A DNA stretch of 64,000 bases. Origin: a virus. The stretch is taken from the UHGV virus genome UHGV-1440165; one strand, given 5' to 3'. The notes under the pieces were generated by a model that made no database searches, was not told where the DNA came from, and saw nothing but the letters and a program-made list of their open reading frames with translations. The position numbers were made by a program, and so were the translations under genes. Below, in pieces: positions 2,300 through 27,558 of the stretch. Each line of letters begins with the position of its first letter. Position 1 is the first letter of the stretch.

Positions 2300-4210
2300 A
2301 TGTCCAACAAAATTGATATTGAACGCAAGTACAAGAAGCTCACTCACGTTGAGCATATCCTACTCCGCCCAGAGCGTCATCTGGGCAGTATTCGTTCGTC
2401 TGTGGGGACGGTCTGGGTGTATGACCCAAACAAAGACAAAGTCATCTTCCGTGACAACTTTGAGTACTCCCCCGCGCTGATCAAACAGTTTGATGAAATC
2501 ATCACCAACTGTGTCGACCACAGCAAGACCCCTGAGGGCAAATCCCTGACGGAAATCACTGTCACGGTTTCCCCTATGAACGGTCAAATCATCGTTGCTG
2601 ACAACGGGGGCATCCCTGTGGTCAAGCATGGTGTCACCAATGAGTGGCTCCCTGAGATGTTGTTTGGCTCGCTCTATGCGGGCAGCAACTTCAACGATGA
2701 AGACGAAGAGTACAACAACCAGAAGTCCGGCGGCCAGAATGGTGAAGGGGCTTCGTTGGTCAACGTGTTCTCAAAGTGGTTCCGCGTTACGACCAACGAC
2801 GGCAAGAAATCTTATGCTCAGACGTTTGAAGACAACATGAGCAAGAAGTCTAATCCGGTCATCAGCAACATGAACAGCCCTGGCACTTCCATCGCATGGA
2901 TCCCTGATTATGCTCGCCTGGGCGTCAAGGGGCTTGACCAGAACAACCTGCTCATGATCTATCGCCGCGCATTCGAAGTCGCTGCATGCAACCCGCGCCT
3001 GAAGATTGTGCTCAACGGCAAGCAAATCCGCATTGACCGCTTTGGCCATTTTGTTGATTACTTCTGTGCTGGCTCCGCTGTCGATGAAACCGGGGACTGG
3101 TCTGTTGCTGTAGCCCCTTCATCCGGTACGTTCATGCATGCTTCATACGTGAACTCAATCGCCACCCACATCGGTGGTCCGCACGTTGATTATGTGGCTG
3201 ATCAGATCGTGGCGGCGATTCGTCCTCAGCTGGTTAAGAAGTTCAAGACTGAGCTGAAGCCAGCGATGATCAAGAACCACATGTCCTTGTTCATCGCTGC
3301 CGACATCAACAACCCGCGCTTTGATAGCCAGACCAAGGAGCGCATGACGACTCCTGTCAGCCAGTTCGGTACATCCTACAAGCCCAGCGATAAGCTGATC
3401 CGCAAGGCGCTGGAGTTCGTTACAGCTGGCCTGAGCAAAGAACTGGCGGCTCTGCGTAATGACCAGGATGATGCCGAGTTTGAAAAGGCCAAGAAGGATA
3501 TCAGCAAGCGCGATTACCGTGAGATTGAGAAGTATTACCCGGCGACTGCCCGTGGCGATCGTAGCGGATGCTCCCTGCTGCTGACTGAGGGTGATAGTGC
3601 CTCCAACCCTATTCTGAACGCCCGTGACACTAAGAAGATCGGGTTGTTCCCACTTCGTGGTAAGTTCATCAACTGCCTGAACGCCCCGCGCTCAAAGGTG
3701 ATGGCGAACGAAGAGTTCAAGAACCTGTGCACAATCCACGGCGGCGCAGTACCCGGTCAGCCGCTTGACATCAGCCGCTATCCACAGACTGTTGTGGCTA
3801 CCGATGCGGACGATGACGGCATTCACATCCGTGGTCTACTGATCACCTTGTATTGCACCTACTGGCCGGAGTACGTCCGTCAGGGCAGGCTCAAGCTCCT
3901 GCGCACCCCTTACATGCGTGTGTGGTGTGGTAAGGTGATGCATGAGTTCATGAACAACGCTGAGTATGAGGAATTCCTGAAGACACCTGATGCCAAGAAG
4001 ATCACGAAGAAGAAATATCTGAAAGGTCTGGGCGGTAACAGCACTGAAGACTTCAAACGTATTCTAAACAACCTGGATGCGTATACTACGACGGTCACGC
4101 TGGACGACGGCTACAAACAGTCACTGAAGAATGGCTTCGGTGATGAGGCCGCCGATTACCGCAAAACCTGGTTTAGCGATGTTTGCCTGTTTGAAACCGA
4201 GGATGAATAA
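2300..4210 (+). CDS. 39: DNA topoisomerase II large subunit (GyrB-like ATPase/TOPRIM; T4 gp39 plus gp60-equivalent in one ORF)
   Basis: 636 aa; GHKL ATPase region (DNGGGIPV), TOPRIM region (LLLTEGDSA ... ATDADDDG); length consistent with a fused gp39+gp60. Confidence 0.9.
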   Translation: MSNKIDIERKYKKLTHVEHILLRPERHLGSIRSSVGTVWVYDPNKDKVIFRDNFEYSPALIKQFDEIITNCVDHSKTPEGKSLTEITVTVSPMNGQIIVADNGGIPVVKHGVTNEWLPEMLFGSLYAGSNFNDEDEEYNNQKSGGQNGEGASLVNVFSKWFRVTTNDGKKSYAQTFEDNMSKKSNPVISNMNSPGTSIAWIPDYARLGVKGLDQNNLLMIYRRAFEVAACNPRLKIVLNGKQIRIDRFGHFVDYFCAGSAVDETGDWSVAVAPSSGTFMHASYVNSIATHIGGPHVDYVADQIVAAIRPQLVKKFKTELKPAMIKNHMSLFIAADINNPRFDSQTKERMTTPVSQFGTSYKPSDKLIRKALEFVTAGLSKELAALRNDQDDAEFEKAKKDISKRDYREIEKYYPATARGDRSGCSLLLTEGDSASNPILNARDTKKIGLFPLRGKFINCLNAPRSKVMANEEFKNLCTIHGGAVPGQPLDISRYPQTVVATDADDDGIHIRGLLITLYCTYWPEYVRQGRLKLLRTPYMRVWCGKVMHEFMNNAEYEEFLKTPDAKKITKKKYLKGLGGNSTEDFKRILNNLDAYTTTVTLDDGYKQSLKNGFGDEAADYRKTWFSDVCLFETEDE

Positions 4211-21604: not shown

Positions 21605-21939
21605 TTGCGCTTCCTCTTATTTCGCCCAGCTTCTACATCATTTAATTTTAGCCAGTTGGTCTCCTTGATATCAGAAGACCCCCAGCCCTGAGATTCATGG
21701 TGTTTGATGTATTTCATCAACTCTGACATGAGGTTCAGTTCGTGAATAAACCGCAACACCAGCATGAACCGCTTGAAGGAAACAGGAATCTGGCGATATC
21801 CCATCACCCAATGGTTCACCACGTTAGAGCATGACAACGCCCTTGTCAGTGCGCTCTGGTTCATCCCCATCATCTTCAGGAATTTCAATAGGAACAAAGA
21901 GTCGTTATTTTCCTTGACTTTCCGGAGTTCTGAAATCAT
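21598..21939 (-). CDS. Hypothetical protein with HTH-like segment
   Basis: MNQSALTRALSCSNVVNHWVMGY resembles an XRE-type helix-turn-helix; start may be internal (about 21873). Confidence 0.35.
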   Translation of the reverse strand: MISELRKVKENNDSLFLLKFLKMMGMNQSALTRALSCSNVVNHWVMGYRQIPVSFKRFMLVLRFIHELNLMSELMKYIKHHESQGWGSSDIKETNWLKLNDVEAGRNKRKRKC

Positions 21940-22162
21940 GATATCGTTCCGCTAATGTCTTGTAATGTTTGTCAGGATTATACTCCTGTTTGGAATAGTG
22001 AAGAGTAAGGGAAGCACTCAGACCGATGATCATCACGGCAATGAGCACCTTGTGGTTCTTGATGTCAGGAATAGCTATCCACACCAGCACCATCACAAGC
22101 GAGCTGACAATCAAGGACAGCAGGAAAGTTAATGACAACACCAATGCGAATAGCTCGTCCAT
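21905..22162 (-). CDS. Small membrane protein
   Basis: Two predicted TM helices; 85 aa. Confidence 0.35.
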   Translation of the reverse strand: MDELFALVLSLTFLLSLIVSSLVMVLVWIAIPDIKNHKVLIAVMIIGLSASLTLHYSKQEYNPDKHYKTLAERYHDFRTPESQGK

Positions 22163-22166
22163 CAGA

Positions 22167-22424
22167 TCACCCTTGTGTGCGATGTGTTAGCAAGAGACTT
22201 CTGCGATCGATTTTCTTAGAAGACTCTACCATGTCAGCCAAGCGCTGTCGAAGGACTTCTTCGCCAGGGATTGGACCAGCTTTCAAGAATTCACGGGCTT
22301 CCGGGAACTCAGTTTCGGGCAGTGTATCCAGGATCTGCTTCAGGAAACAGATTGCCTGCATACGATGGCCATCGAACTGGAGGGCAAGATCCCTCCATTT
22401 CAGTTCAGTGCTGTCTTTGCTCAT
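22167..22424 (-). CDS. Hypothetical protein
   Basis: 85-aa ORF coupled (ATGA) to the ligase stop. Confidence 0.4.
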   Translation of the reverse strand: MSKDSTELKWRDLALQFDGHRMQAICFLKQILDTLPETEFPEAREFLKAGPIPGEEVLRQRLADMVESSKKIDRRSLLLTHRTQG

Positions 22425-23848: not shown

Positions 23849-23903
23849 GTAATGTCTCCAGGGTTATATGTGCTGCTATTATAACCCTGGGGACTTCAAT
23901 AGA

Positions 23904-24089
23904 TTATTGGCGGCGGGATCTTGCCTGGCTGACAATGATGTCGATGTTCGATTGTGGTTTCTTTTTCTTTTTCTTACGAGGCATCAGAGAGTGATATGCG
24001 ACGTAGAGGAACAAGAACATAATCAGACCACAACCGGTGAGTGCGCAACCGACCAGACCCGCAGTCAAAACCATTTCAAAAGTCGTCAT
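23904..24089 (-). CDS. Small single-pass membrane protein (tandem paralog 3)
   Basis: MTTFEMVLTAGLVGCALTGCG... TM helix plus poly-Lys tail; SD GAGGAAG; internal Met of the 127-aa ORF-track read-through. Confidence 0.4.
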   Translation of the reverse strand: MTTFEMVLTAGLVGCALTGCGLIMFLFLYVAYHSLMPRKKKKKKPQSNIDIIVSQARSRRQ

Positions 24090-24253
24090 TTGCGTCTTCC
24101 TCGAGCTTTGTTCACTATGTGGTCGATACTTTCCTTCCGAAACTTCGATTTCAGAACACCGATAGCCCCAGATGCGTGGAGTGCTATAGCAATCGCCACT
24201 AATATGGCCGGAGAAGCCCCGACCAGACCCGCCAAAAAGTGTTCCAGCGTCAT
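24086..24253 (-). CDS. Small single-pass membrane protein (tandem paralog 2)
   Basis: 55-aa ORF MTLEHFLAGLVGASPAILVAIAIAL...; near-identical RBS/start region to the 24089 start; ATGA coupling. Confidence 0.4.
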   Translation of the reverse strand: MTLEHFLAGLVGASPAILVAIAIALHASGAIGVLKSKFRKESIDHIVNKARGRRK

Positions 24254-24429
24254 CTGCGTCTCCTCCGAGCGTTCTCCACAATCGCATAGATGTCCCAGCC
24301 AGTACGGCGGTTTTTGCGCTTAATGCGCCACTCGTGGAACTTTGCGTCCAGGTTGTGGGAATTCAGCATTACCATCACGATACACACAGCTGTGGTGATC
24401 AATGAGAACAACTTCATATATTCCATCAT
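24250..24429 (-). CDS. Small single-pass membrane protein (tandem paralog 1)
   Basis: 59-aa ORF MMEYMKLFSLITTAVCIVMVM... with Arg-rich tail; SD GGAGGGG; overlaps both neighbours. Confidence 0.4.
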   Translation of the reverse strand: MMEYMKLFSLITTAVCIVMVMLNSHNLDAKFHEWRIKRKNRRTGWDIYAIVENARRRRR

Positions 24430-24989
24430 AACCCCTCCGCCCAGACAAACCCATACTTGTTCAGCAGATCCACGTTCTGTCCACGGGCGCGAGCCACGAT
24501 GGTTTCAATGGCTTCTTCTACCTCGAGTGGCGGGCACCCGGCGTCCACGTATGTGTTGAATAAGTGTTCTAATTCCTTTATGAACCCGGATTGTTCGTCT
24601 TTACCAAAGAACCAAACCCTGGCATCAGTTTCCTTGCCATCTTGGTCGATGGAGGCCATGTACATATACAAATGCGTTTTTCTTTGGGTGATACCCCTTA
24701 CTTCAGGCCAGTGCAATCCGTTCATGACATAATTGAAAAACTCTACGGGAGTGATGTCATCTGATACATAATAAAGCCGGAAGTCTGTGTCCGTTTCACC
24801 ATGCTTGGAAATCCTTCCGCTCAATAATTTAGAGATATTCACCCTTCGGCGAGTCCCATAAAATGTCTTGGATTTGAATTTACTGATGCCATCGGAAATG
24901 AAGCGACGCCCGAATACAATGACGGACATAACCCAAATAACACCCAAGATTATGGTGCTGAGGTCAACGTTGAACATAAGATCCCCCAA
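24426..24989 (-). CDS. Membrane-anchored protein, hypothetical
   Basis: N-terminal TM helix (LSTIILGVIWVMSVIVFG) then a soluble domain; 187 aa. Confidence 0.45.
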   Translation of the reverse strand: MGDLMFNVDLSTIILGVIWVMSVIVFGRRFISDGISKFKSKTFYGTRRRVNISKLLSGRISKHGETDTDFRLYYVSDDITPVEFFNYVMNGLHWPEVRGITQRKTHLYMYMASIDQDGKETDARVWFFGKDEQSGFIKELEHLFNTYVDAGCPPLEVEEAIETIVARARGQNVDLLNKYGFVWAEGL

Positions 24990-25019: not shown

Positions 25020-25631
25020 TTACTTGGCAGCCAGGCTGGCGAGGTAGTTGTCGGCTTCGATAGACGACGGGCTGTTGGCCGAGTAGCTCGAGTCGGCGAT
25101 TTCGGTTTCGCGCAGGATGGCATCGATATCGATAGTGGTCATGCCAGCAGCATAATCGATGTCTTCAGGGAGTACCAGACCCATATTGCTGGTTTCTTTC
25201 TGAACACGGACCAGCTCGAGGTTGGACTTCACTTCGTCCAGTTTGTCACCCAGCTGGATGATCGCTTCGTTCAGCTTGCCGCTGCTCGCTTCGATGTCCT
25301 TCACCTGAGCCAACAGGGCTTCGCCAATACGGCGGCGATGCAGAACGATCAGGGCTTCTGAACGTGCGGGCTTGCCACCACGGGCGATAGCGTCTTTCAG
25401 AATCTGCTCACGCTTGGTGGCCTCACCCAGGTTCTCTTCGGCGGTCTTCTTCAGCTTGACGCCGTTGCGGACGTTGGCGACACGGGCTTCTTCCAGGCGA
25501 CGGATTTCATCAGACAGCTTACGAGCAGCCAGGTTCAGGCGCTTTTCGGTGTCGGTCAGTTTATCCAGACCTGCAGTGACGTTGGCTTCAACAGTGGTGA
25601 AGATGCGTTTCAGTAAGTTTTTCAGTGACAT
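25020..25631 (-). CDS. PspA/IM30-like coiled-coil protein (candidate)
   Basis: IFTTVEANVTAGLDKLTDTEKRL resembles the PspA N-terminus ([26 protein letters not shown]); helical coiled-coil composition; about 200 aa. Confidence 0.45.
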   Translation of the reverse strand: MSLKNLLKRIFTTVEANVTAGLDKLTDTEKRLNLAARKLSDEIRRLEEARVANVRNGVKLKKTAEENLGEATKREQILKDAIARGGKPARSEALIVLHRRRIGEALLAQVKDIEASSGKLNEAIIQLGDKLDEVKSNLELVRVQKETSNMGLVLPEDIDYAAGMTTIDIDAILRETEIADSSYSANSPSSIEADNYLASLAAK

Positions 25632-25690: not shown

Positions 25691-26038
25691 TTATTTGTTA
25701 TGAAATCCCAGAGTCTTGCGGACTTCTTCCCGGCATTTGGTGTCGAGCTGAACCGCCGCGCGATTAATCCGACGCCTGTAGTGTCGGGTAAGAGCTTTAT
25801 ACACAGCCTTGGATTCATGGTATGGCAGACAGTTGGAACAGAACCCGATATCGACCCTGTAGCCTGCGTTGCTGTTAACCGTGTAAGCATATACTCTGAC
25901 ACCGTTATAGATCACAGCGTCGATCCCGACCAGCCGCTCTCCGTTCCATTCAACGTCATCAGCGTCGATCGCATCAATCAGACAACGGATTTCGGCGCTC
26001 AGAGGCTTGCCCAACAACCAGTTGAAATACTTGCGCAT
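25691..26038 (-). CDS. Hypothetical protein
   Basis: 115-aa ORF. Confidence 0.4.
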   Translation of the reverse strand: MRKYFNWLLGKPLSAEIRCLIDAIDADDVEWNGERLVGIDAVIYNGVRVYAYTVNSNAGYRVDIGFCSNCLPYHESKAVYKALTRHYRRRINRAAVQLDTKCREEVRKTLGFHNK

Positions 26039-26039
26039 G

Positions 26040-26255
26040 TCACTTCCTCATCAGTGAAAGCAGGTTGACCGTAGCAGGGCGCGCATCAGGGGCGTAGAAG
26101 ACGTCCTGAGAGTGCCTCTTACAGCACGGGCAATCCTTCGTGGCGATTACACAGGGAGCCTTGTCCACGGCAAACCCGGCGGCTTCGGCTTCCTTCACGG
26201 TGGTGAATGGCAGGTAAGCACTTGTGCCCTGCCCTCCGCATGAACATTCCATCAA
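26040..26255 (-). CDS. Small Cys-rich protein, hypothetical
   Basis: 71 aa with CSCGG ... CPCCK. Confidence 0.35.
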   Translation of the reverse strand: MMECSCGGQGTSAYLPFTTVKEAEAAGFAVDKAPCVIATKDCPCCKRHSQDVFYAPDARPATVNLLSLMRK

Positions 26256-26364
26256 CGTTTCCTCTTAAAGGGGATGATCAGAGCTATGATGACAAGCATA
26301 GCTGTAATCACCCCGCATGCTATCAGACCAAAGGCGAACGACTTCAGAACAAACTCAATCAAAT

Positions 26365-27558
26365 TCATAACTTCCTCAATTTGGCTCGGGTGACCTGAGT
26401 TTGTTTAACACCGTTGTACTCGGTCAGTTCTTTGACACGACCTCTGATGATCATATCGCCCTGTAAGAACTCAGTATCCATATAAGAGGTCTTCCAGGTA
26501 ATTGTATTGCCTTCTGCTGTTTTGAAAGTAAACAGGTAGCTGTCACCGTATTCATTGGAGAAGAGGAAGGTGCGCTTGTCGAACCTGACTTGCACTTCCA
26601 GCATCTCCCCGACTTCGCCCACCCATTTGTTCTCTGTCTTGCGGTCGGCGCGAGGGCGATGGATGTAATCGTAATACTTCTTGGCACCCCAGCGGACTGT
26701 GTTATCGTCCTTGATCAGGTGGTAGCCCGGTTCGCACATGCGTTTCAGGCGAACGTTGAACTCGTTGGATTCAGACAGCGCTGCGATGAAGAGCTTCATG
26801 TGGTACATTTCTGACTCGGCATCTTCACGATATTCACGAGCCTTGATCAGAAAAATCTCGGCGTCAGAACCAGCCTTTGGTCTCTGGCCAGCACGGAGGT
26901 AGCCCAGAACCTCACCAAACAGATCTGATTTGATGTCCACGCCAGCCAGCAGCACCTGGAAGCATGCGCGCAGGTAACTGTGGGTGTCGGTGAAGCGTTC
27001 GTTCTGGACGCGATAGATCCCATCCGGGTCGTCTTCATCCGGCATGAAGAACTCGGTGATACCCAGATAGTAAGACATAATCGCGTCAAGAGACTTCTGA
27101 TGTGGTACGTAATGATGCATACAGGTACTGCCGATCAGCATCTGGGTGTGGCTCTGCTCATTCTCGATCACATATGTGTTCTTGCGACGGATGAGCAGAT
27201 TACAGTGCTGACACCAAGAGACGTTCTCTCCCTCGAAGCGACGGATGAAGTCGGCATTGATGTTGTCGGACAGTTTGTTCAGGATGACCTTTGGGTACTC
27301 GTGATTGAACTGCCCAATGATCTTCCAGCCACCATAAGAAACCGGGCGGTCGATACCTTCGCCTTCGAGGGTGACGGGTTTCCACCAATGAGTAAGGATC
27401 TCACCAGTGAAGTCACGGGTATGGGTTTTGAAGGGTTCACCATAAGTCACAGTCGGGAACGGGATACCCAATCTTTCGGCAGTGCGCTCGAGCTTCTTCA
27501 GTCGCTCAACCACCAGTTCTTCATTGTCGATCGGAATGTTGAATGTCTTGGCGTCCAT
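26365..27558 (-). CDS. Hypothetical protein with Cys/His cluster and OB-fold-like C-terminus
   Basis: 397 aa; WCQHCN...STCMHH cluster; C-terminal beta-rich segment ends RGRVKELTEYNGVKQTQVTRAKL. Confidence 0.5.
   Translation of the reverse strand: MDAKTFNIPIDNEELVVERLKKLERTAERLGIPFPTVTYGEPFKTHTRDFTGEILTHWWKPVTLEGEGIDRPVSYGGWKIIGQFNHEYPKVILNKLSDNINADFIRRFEGENVSWCQHCNLLIRRKNTYVIENEQSHTQMLIGSTCMHHYVPHQKSLDAIMSYYLGITEFFMPDEDDPDGIYRVQNERFTDTHSYLRACFQVLLAGVDIKSDLFGEVLGYLRAGQRPKAGSDAEIFLIKAREYREDAESEMYHMKLFIAALSESNEFNVRLKRMCEPGYHLIKDDNTVRWGAKKYYDYIHRPRADRKTENKWVGEVGEMLEVQVRFDKRTFLFSNEYGDSYLFTFKTAEGNTITWKTSYMDTEFLQGDMIIRGRVKELTEYNGVKQTQVTRAKLRKL

Follow-up and report, generated by a model that had tools for sequence, protein, structure and literature searches.

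Four consecutive membrane protein genes beside a PspA-like gene share a short motif in a phage genome

Organization of the locus

The window, which is the whole 64,000-nt stretch of viral DNA that was analyzed, contains an array of three small genes (A, B and C) that sits among replication genes, upstream of a DNA ligase gene. The gene order on the minus strand was found to be a 115-aa ORF, a gene for a PspA-like protein, the gene for a larger membrane protein (T187), A, B, C, a 55-nt spacer and the ligase gene (Table 1). Comparison with related phages revealed that the locus was 97.4% identical to that of Salmonella phage pSal-SNUABM-02 and showed a patchy identity of approximately 90% to Shigella phage Ag3 and Salmonella phage SKML-39 (Ackermannviridae, Agtrevirus). 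The spacer between C and the ligase gene carries an inverted repeat that contains a TATAAT sequence and abuts the ligase Shine-Dalgarno sequence; this repeat is the conserved right-hand edge of the small-gene array. Additionally, a GAAA-loop hairpin was observed near the array. A promoter and terminator scan revealed nothing exceeding the shuffle expectation, and the sole Rfam match over the region was a sub-threshold, snoRNA-like match that arose by chance.

Table 1. Positions of the genes, motifs and repeats in and around the small-gene array.
Feature	Position	Strand	Remarks
115-aa ORF	25691-26038	-	precedes the PspA-like gene
PspA/IM30-family protein, 203 aa, T4 e.6-like	25020..25631	-	first gene of the cassette; phrog_1203
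T187, 183-aa membrane protein	24426..24977	-	phrog_11433, E 5e-57
Motif of T187, IETIVARARG	24483-24509	-	followed by KYGFVW
T187/A overlap, ATGA	24426-24429	-	
Gene A, 59 aa, predicted bitopic membrane protein	24250..24429	-	tail DIYAIVENARRRRR; phrog_25181, E 6e-11
Tail motif of A, IYAIVENAR	24265..24291	-	followed by Arg codons AGG AGA (24259-24264), the Shine-Dalgarno sequence of B
20-mer at the A/B junction	24251-24270	+	
A/B overlap, ATGA	24250-24253	-	
Gene B, 55 aa, predicted bitopic membrane protein	24086..24253	-	tail SIDHIVNKARGRRK; phrog_34926, E 2e-39
Tail motif of B, IDHIVNKAR	24101..24127	-	followed by GGA AGA (24095-24100)
20-mer at the B/C junction	24087-24106	+	
B/C overlap, ATGA	24086-24089	-	
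Gene C, 61 aa, predicted bitopic membrane protein	23904..24089	-	K6 stretch; tail NIDIIVSQARSRRQ; phrog_33430, E 1.5e-7
Tail motif of C, IDIIVSQAR	23919..23945	-	no overlapping downstream gene; codons unlike A and B
14-nt direct repeat CCGACCAGACCCGC	24049..24062 and 24219-24232		sole exact repeat in the array
Inverted repeat, 15-nt arms, 93% complementary	23854..23894		within the 55-nt C/ligase spacer
ATP-dependent DNA ligase, 475 aa	22421..23848	-	conserved; downstream of the array

Anatomy of the small genes

The preliminary description had placed here three consecutive minus-strand ORFs of 59, 55 and 61 aa, two of them shorter than 60 aa and the third lying within a 127-aa ORF, each with a short N-terminus, one transmembrane (TM) segment and a basic C-terminal tail, and all of these points were borne out. 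The best 19-aa Kyte-Doolittle mean was 2.0-2.35 in A, B and C, with one strongly hydrophobic segment in each protein, and the net charge was 0 to -1 in the N-terminal flank and +7 to +9 in the C-terminal tail. On the basis of this charge distribution and the positive-inside rule, an N-out/C-in topology was predicted for all three proteins. The AF2 model of gene A, calculated from a 26-sequence alignment, had a mean pLDDT of 84 and comprised three helices: residues 2-22 (TM), residues 24-43 (basic juxtamembrane, containing FHEWR) and residues 45-58 (tail). As ATGA overlaps were present at all three junctions from T187 to C, the four genes T187, A, B and C would form one translationally coupled string. 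As judged from these sequence features, A, B and C are predicted to be translationally coupled, N-out/C-in single-pass proteins of the inner membrane.

Two longer frames overlapping the array were rejected as genes. The 127-aa extended form of C (23904-24287) is broken by a stop codon in the 97%-identical pSal-SNUABM-02, and all C orthologues begin at the M-T-(T)-F position. A plus-strand 151-aa ORF (23868-24323), which sits in a 156-codon stop-to-stop open frame (23853-24320), was discarded because its open frame is interrupted in Ag3 and SKML-39.

The small genes are already annotated in relatives. Ag3 lists them as orf00047, orf00047.1 and orf00046 ("hypothetical membrane protein, one transmembrane domain"), and SKML-39 and pSal-SNUABM-02 likewise annotate them as hypothetical membrane proteins; the Ag3 genome paper is silent on any kinship among the three (PMC3121705). 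Searches with A, B, C and T187 against Pfam, NCBIfam, PADLOC and PDB sequences gave no family match, only noise at E <= 1. The PHROG families of the four proteins were matched over their full length, and all are unannotated or named merely "membrane protein". Gene B was the rarest yet best conserved type, with seven phage records of 94-98% identity.

Similarity among A, B and C

A recent tandem duplication had been proposed, in which nearly identical start regions were copied together with the ribosome-binding sites. Both 20-mers on which this proposal was based are present (Table 1), but just 16 of their 20 bases match, and neither retrieved the other at <=3 mismatches. On the coding strand, the two regions read GCT CGG AGG AGA CGC AGA TGA (A) and GCT CGA GGA AGA CGC AAA TGA (B), which are the last codons of A (A-R-R-R-R-R-stop) and of B (A-R-G-R-R-K-stop), and the closing Arg/Gly codons of A and B also provide the following gene with its Shine-Dalgarno sequence. 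The conserved stretch is thus the coding 3' end of the preceding paralogue and not an upstream element, which contradicts the idea that a ribosome-binding site was duplicated with its gene.

Pairwise alignment revealed significant local similarity among the proteins, whereas nucleotide similarity extended over no more than 33 nt. In particular, the top-scoring local alignment between the A and B nucleotide sequences matched at 26 of 33 positions and was confined to the 3' ends (shuffle p ~0.002), A and C showed no similarity at the nucleotide level (p 0.98), and the sole nucleotide match between B and C was the exact 14-nt direct repeat, which is translated as AGLVG close to the N-terminus of either protein. 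The BLOSUM62 local scores were significant against shuffles for all three protein pairs (p 0.013 for A/B, 0.002 for A/C and 0.0005 for B/C), with the significant alignments confined to the last 21-24 residues. Profile comparison using hhalign gave a probability of 96.7% and an E value of 4e-10 over 29 columns for the A-type against the C-type profile, and an E value of 1e-4 over 16 columns for the C-type profile against B. Overall protein identity among A, B and C was 17-25% and their TM segments were unalignable; no homology spanning the entire proteins with their TM segments was found among A, B, C and T187, as the alignments span the last 16-29 residues only. Additionally, A, B and C fall into three separate PHROG families, and orthologues of each type are present in several other phages.

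These alignments indicated an old relationship among the three genes, either as genuine paralogues or through shared modules, and not a recent triplication. The description of a tandem family of single-pass proteins with a basic tail therefore holds, but a recent duplication that included the ribosome-binding sites does not: extended nucleotide identity is missing, the TM segments cannot be aligned, three PHROG families are involved, and dS reaches or approaches saturation for A and C (see below).

The shared tail motif and T187

The tails of the small proteins conform to the consensus [IV]-D-x-I-[IV]-x-x-A-R-x-R. A search with the motif regex of the six-frame translation of the 64 kb returned exactly four matches, compared with 0.37 expected from shuffles, and the matches were A, B, C and T187, which are four consecutive genes. 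This fourth motif-bearing gene and its PspA-like neighbor had been overlooked in the first reading. The mechanical ORF of T187 comprises 187 aa from a TTG at 24989. Its product has an N-terminal TM segment, a cytoplasmic α/β domain, the motif and then KYGFVW, so the shared helix is C-terminal in the small proteins and internal in T187. AF2 modeled the cytoplasmic domain of T187 (approximately residues 45-150) with confidence, at a pLDDT of ~90, and the block containing KYGFVW had a mean of 89, while the motif helix (residues 157-164) was of low confidence, with block means of 56-61. In three genera, the T187 homologues share an invariant E-x-[IV]-E-[ST]-I-[IV]-x-R-A-R that is followed by KYGF-x-W.

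The I, A and R of the motif were also invariant in 26 sequences that were 12-88% identical to A. The Shine-Dalgarno sequence of C consists of the GGA AGA that follows the motif of B together with the preceding CGA. T187, C and the single-copy genes of other genera, none of which is overlapped by a following gene, spell the motif with different codons, which argues that the constraint acts on the protein and not solely on the Shine-Dalgarno sequence. Taken from sequence and profile comparisons, A, B, C and T187 appear as a four-member family that is defined by a predicted short cytoplasmic helix, [IV]-D/E-x-I-[IV]-x-x-A-R-x-R.

Variants of the motif also matched within genomes. SII was found in both motif genes of phage May, A-K in three of the five motif genes of the metagenomic contig L018, and EQARKE, written with different codons, in both motif genes of the Nezavisimistyvirus Bue1. 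This matching, which was seen in three genomes, is suggestive of a shared contact.

The PspA-like neighbor and linkage of the cassette genes

The PspA-like protein matched PF04012 with 44.7 bits (gathering cut-off 33.9; E 1.5e-11) over profile positions 1-146 of 220. Its scores fell well short of the NCBIfam equivalog cut-offs for PspA and LiaH, which makes it a divergent member of the family; a search against the PDB returned no sequence match. Across Agtrevirus, Taipeivirus and Kuttervirus, the PspA-like protein was 77-92% identical, whereas T187 was just 30-54% identical.

To describe the linkage, 40 fetched loci and the window were compared. Twenty loci had the PspA-like gene as well as T187 and 18 had neither, counts that are not independent since several loci are the same phage sampled twice. 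In this set, T187 was never found without the PspA-like gene, and full-length small genes were found solely where T187 and the PspA-like gene were both present. The whole cassette was missing from many relatives.

More distant loci showed looser versions of the arrangement. In Bue1, whose PspA-like protein is 27% identical to that of the window, we found the PspA-like gene, one or more larger motif-bearing proteins, a small TM protein with an I-V-x-x-A-R-type tail, and the ligase. In the Miltonvirus Kevin (30% identical), the order was looser, the last TM protein lacked a clean IVxxAR tail, and the T187-like protein had no TM segment and carried EIINGARK. T4-like phages such as GAP161 have e.6/PspA-like genes without such neighbors. 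Phage ZQ1 and locus L028 keep the PspA-like gene and T187 without small genes, which indicates that the cassette can exist without them.

Copy number, mosaic structure and selection

The expectation that copy number might vary among related phages proved correct, with zero, one, two or three small genes present between T187 and the ligase gene. Three were found in the window, pSal-SNUABM-02, Ag3, SKML-39 and P46FS4; two in MK-13, EspM4VN and two metagenomic contigs; and one in May, Vi01 and FEC14, where it is unannotated, and in IME250, where the single gene is divergent and also unannotated. Contig L018 carried five motif genes in a row, namely two T187 paralogues and three small genes.

Several of the reduced or lost arrays bore traces of recombination. 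The single gene of phage Gloob consists of an A-type N-terminus joined to a C-type tail inside the D-x-I-I codons. The only small-gene remnant in L028 is MMDTETFAVIISQARSRTRQ, which is a crossover of ATCATCATCAGC (the N-terminus of the first gene) with ATCATTATCAGC (the tail of the last gene), as they occur in MK-13; ZQ1 has the same remnant, decayed further by a stop codon. In AV101 and CBA120, the whole cassette is absent and a few tail codons are fused to or overlap the upstream gene, leaving the scars ...LHTDLIIGQARSRTRQ and ...NNRKRRSK. As read from these junctions, recombination inside the tail codons appears to make chimeras, collapse the array and delete the cassette.

Sliding identity against Ag3 was 17-50% in the TM-coding parts of T187, A and C and 83-100% in the tails, the whole of B and the spacers. 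The membrane anchors thus appear to have been replaced wholesale while the tails, which mark the boundaries, were retained. Against Ag3, dS was 0.33 for the 203-aa gene and 0.20 for B (0.43 for the ligase, measured against SKML-39), and it reached or approached saturation for T187, A and C (1.06 to undefined, the latter for A), which is explained by the 17-50% identity of their TM-coding parts. The dN/dS of B was 0.15-0.35 (0.15-0.22 against Ag3 and SKML-39), and where dS was unsaturated, values of 0.18-0.47 for C and 0.30 for A were obtained, compared with 0.03-0.06 for the ligase and 0.04-0.13 for the 203-aa PspA-like gene. These values indicated that the small genes are coding and constrained, though loosely.

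The family was found to be narrow. The small-protein profile retrieved 27 clusters among 5.8 billion, all with the same tail, several of them on contigs of ~158 kb and many on short fragments. An exhaustive HMMER search of 1.84 billion representatives yielded 12 small proteins (55-64 aa), all from Ackermannviridae-like contigs, and one spurious long match; the T187 family was equally narrow. Overall, these comparisons point to an old family that is confined to Ackermannviridae-like phage contigs and appears to evolve by module exchange.

Discussion

Taken as first stated, three duplicated small membrane protein genes would be a minor observation; large phages often carry such genes in their plastic regions. 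Although the small genes had been annotated in relatives, their recognition as one motif family tied to a PspA cassette is new. The 9-11-residue cytoplasmic motif unites four PHROG families that clustering had kept apart, and it links this family to the phage PspA homologues.

PspA-family proteins are typically encoded beside small membrane partners, including PspB, PspC, LiaI and PspM (PMC11237479). The array resembled the loci of PspB/PspC in E. coli and Yersinia, LiaI in B. subtilis and PspM in mycobacteria, where short membrane proteins adjoin a PspA/IM30 gene: A is preceded by a PF04012 gene, from which T187 separates it, and the small proteins are predicted to be bitopic with an N-out/C-in orientation. 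As in PspB, an N-terminal TM helix is combined with a cytoplasmic helical tail (PMC11237479). In contrast to the Psp partners, the small proteins are phage-encoded, multi-copy and hypervariable in the TM segment, with a tail motif that is not known from Psp systems, and in Pfam and NCBIfam they showed no match at E <= 1 beyond noise to the PspB (PF06667) or PspC (PF04024) profiles.

We consider it possible, though short of probable, that the shared helix docks a common cassette partner and that the small proteins are additional, non-essential anchors or modulators. In this view, A, B, C and T187 would each expose an amphipathic-plus-arginine helix of the same kind to the cytoplasm at the inner membrane, and this helix would dock the PspA/ESCRT-III-like protein or the cytoplasmic domain of T187, which are the best candidates for the partner; the analogy with PspB/PspC, LiaI and PspM favors the PspA-like protein. 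The small proteins would then serve as anchors or nucleation sites in the manner of these Psp partners, and they would be interchangeable and dispensable anchors or modulators of a phage membrane-maintenance module, while the arginine codons of their tails would serve the following gene as its Shine-Dalgarno sequence as well. The anatomy of the proteins, the linkage, the shared motif, the constraint at the protein level, the narrowness of the family, the mosaicism, the recombination products and the Psp precedent were counted in favor of such docking. Counted against it were the e.6/PspA-like genes of T4-like phages without such neighbors, the loss of the small genes from ZQ1 and L028 while the PspA-like gene and T187 stay, and the lack of a match to PspB, PspC or another family. 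Moreover, neighboring genes may be lost together as a side effect of deletion, synteny in the Ackermannviridae is generally conserved, and the covariation of the motif within genomes rests on three genomes. If the tails are docking peptides for PspA or T187, they offer an experimental route to the question of why lytic phages encode ESCRT-III-like proteins.

A phage PspA homologue in Kuttervirus SeF3a was hypothesized to counter membrane-depolarizing abortive infection (PMC9409062). That homologue belongs to the same family (phrog_1203) as the PspA-like protein of the window and occupies the same locus upstream of the ligase, and the parts of the report that deal with it cover the PspA-like gene alone, with nothing on accompanying motif-bearing membrane proteins (PMC9409062). 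A bolder form of the docking proposal, which we regard as improbable, is that Ackermannviridae carry a self-contained viral counterpart of the Psp module, in which the ESCRT-III-like PspA homologue is recruited to the inner membrane by interchangeable, quickly swapped bitopic adaptors and the helix is a new PspA-binding motif. The adaptors would be T187 and zero to three mini-anchors presenting [IV]-D-x-I-V-x-x-A-R-x-R, and such a module would keep the host membrane energized while infection proceeds or counter membrane-depolarizing abortive infection.

Alternatively, each small protein might act alone as an independent membrane effector, for example in superinfection exclusion like T4 Imm and Sp, in host takeover or in countering a membrane-acting defense. 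Imm and Sp are small inner-membrane superinfection-exclusion proteins that are encoded outside the lysis cassette of a large lytic myovirus, and the small proteins resemble them in being predicted inner-membrane proteins of a large phage encoded outside the lysis cassette. The hypervariable TM segment would set specificity, the tail would be generic (oligomerization, lipid binding, insertion or turnover), and the linkage to PspA would be a mere position in a plastic region or would reflect protection of the membrane from these very proteins. The exchange of TM parts with retention of the tails is consistent with this possibility, as are the fluid copy number, the dispensability of the genes and dN/dS values of 0.15-0.47 compared with 0.03-0.13 in the flanking genes; PHROGs also lists A and T187 under moron/host takeover, which is owing just to the name "membrane protein". 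However, the small genes were never seen without T187 and the PspA-like gene, and the invariant spacing of I, A and R, held in common with T187, argues for a specific contact over a generic basic tail. In addition, no similarity to a known exclusion, holin or defense-related family was found: PHROG, Pfam and PADLOC gave no match to holins, spanins, anti-phage defense or exclusion proteins, the genes do not lie in a lysis cassette, and T4 Imm and Sp showed no sequence or PHROG relationship to the small proteins. We view independent action as somewhat doubtful.

It is rather unlikely, in our estimate, that the small proteins are micro-protein regulators of T187, that is, truncated T187-like anchors (TM segment, basic stretch and helix) that tune the activity of T187 by assembling with it via the common helix or by competing with it, with the PspA-like protein not a direct partner. 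T187 bears the motif itself, and its N-proximal part (TM segment, basic stretch and RVDIHKIML) aligned with the whole small-protein profile at an hhalign E value of 4e-4, but with a probability of just 35%. The low-pLDDT motif helix between confident blocks of the model may be an exposed element, motif variants match within genomes, and L018 has duplicated T187 too.

A constraint at the nucleotide level only, in which the shared 3' sequence is kept as a Shine-Dalgarno sequence and stop-start overlap or as a recombination linker and the peptides are otherwise unrelated hydrophobic ORFs, is very unlikely. AGG AGA and GGA AGA do provide GGAGGA-type Shine-Dalgarno sequences 7-8 nt before the next ATG, together with the ATGA overlaps, and the recombination breakpoints do lie in the shared 3' sequence. 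On the other hand, I-V-x-x-A-R is retained with other codons in C, in the T187 motif and in the single-copy genes of May, Vi01 and FEC14, none of which is overlapped by a following gene; the hydrophobic residues of the motif are encoded ahead of the Shine-Dalgarno sequence; and the profile comparison was significant at the protein level. Finally, a recent tandem triplication of one gene with its ribosome-binding site, to which the adjacency of genes of the same layout and the 16/20 identity of the 20-mers could point, is hardly credible in view of nucleotide similarity that ends at 33 nt (A/B), 14 nt (B/C) or is absent (A/C), protein identities of 17-25%, three PHROG families each with orthologues in several phages, and dS at or near saturation for A and C.

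The array is a worked example of how recombination within a coding motif leads to copy-number variation, chimeras and clean cassette loss. T4-type phages acquire, lose or exchange small genes of unknown function in their hyperplastic regions through recombination at short conserved flanking sequences, the PeSLs (PMC2839356, PMC4122927). The chimeras, collapses and scars of the array resemble the products of such shuffling, whereas the recombining sequence here is the coding 3' end of a gene, comprising the tail motif and the Shine-Dalgarno sequence, and not an intergenic promoter/stem-loop. Unlike the separately promoted genes flanked by PeSLs, the genes of the array appear to be co-translationally coupled.

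Divergence and architecture of the motif-bearing genes

The three small single-pass membrane protein genes of the array (A, B and C) differed sharply in their divergence. The protein of gene B was 96% identical to those of phages Ag3 and SKML-39, with a dS of 0.20, whereas the products of A and C, which lie on either side of B, shared 45-57% identity with their orthologues in Ag3 and SKML-39, and their dS values had reached or approached saturation. This difference points to a recent exchange of B alone or to unusually strong constraint on B. Gene B was found in only seven phage records.

The 183-aa membrane protein T187, encoded at 24426-24977 on the minus strand just upstream of A, carries the motif of the small-protein tails, [IV]-D/E-x-I-[IV]-x-x-A-R-x-R. 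The entire small-protein profile aligned to residues ~11-52 of T187 (hhalign E 4e-4, probability 35%), where a TM is followed by a basic stretch and then R-V-D/N-I-x-K-[IL]-[LM]. Based on this match, T187 may be a fusion in which a module resembling the small proteins is joined to a globular domain and to a second copy of the motif.

Motif genes were also identified in other phages and in a metagenomic contig. Phages FEC14 and IME250 each carry an unannotated small motif-bearing ORF; the IME250 homologue of T187 comprises 177 aa, and its annotation covers merely a 150-nt fragment. The metagenomic contig has five consecutive motif genes. Two of them encode T187 paralogues, of 197 and 183 aa, and the other three are small genes of 58, 92 and 59 aa; A-K replaced the A-R of the motif in three of the five.

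Features of the gene string and of the comparison loci
Feature	Location	Strand	Remarks
38-aa ORF	26252-26368	-	same gene string
PspA/IM30-family protein, 203 aa	25020-25631	-	T4 e.6-like; PF04012 match above threshold
GC-rich hairpin, GAAA tetraloop	24997-25014	-	GAGGGGC-GAAA-GCCCCTC, then AATCATTTTG
Gene B	24086-24253	-	
Inverted repeat, 15-nt arms	23854-23894		GTCTCCAGGGTTATA / TATAACCCTGGGGAC; between C and ligase
85-aa ORF	22167-22424	-	downstream of ligase
85-aa ORF	21905-22162	-	downstream of ligase
Small motif ORF	L010 (FEC14) ~3085-3252		
Motif ORF; T187 homologue	L011 (IME250) 3664-3834; 3146-3679		
Five consecutive motif genes	L018 1407-3180		contig SRR30883068_7125

Neighboring genes and intergenic elements

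The tail motif was absent from the 38-aa ORF and both 85-aa ORFs, all three of which belong to this gene string. Homologues of the former (MNLIE..KRKR) in AV101 and Ds9CZ are labelled 'putative membrane protein', and Ag3 is annotated at the place of the latter two with membrane proteins containing one and two TM.

In phage Gloob the family of the PspA-like protein bears the annotation 'putative ABC-type phosphate transport system', in Serratia phage Kevin 'PspA protein'; in print, PspA homologue status is given for this family in Kuttervirus SeF3a only (PMC9409062). The 42-nt spacer between this gene and T187 holds the hairpin, which showed 87-90% conservation relative to Ag3 and may act as a partial terminator or RNA-stability element setting the ratio of PspA-like to membrane protein.

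The inverted repeat contains TATAAT and adjoins the Shine-Dalgarno sequence of the ligase gene. It was almost unchanged in Ag3, MK-13, ZQ1 and comparison locus L028, and every array deletion left it in place.
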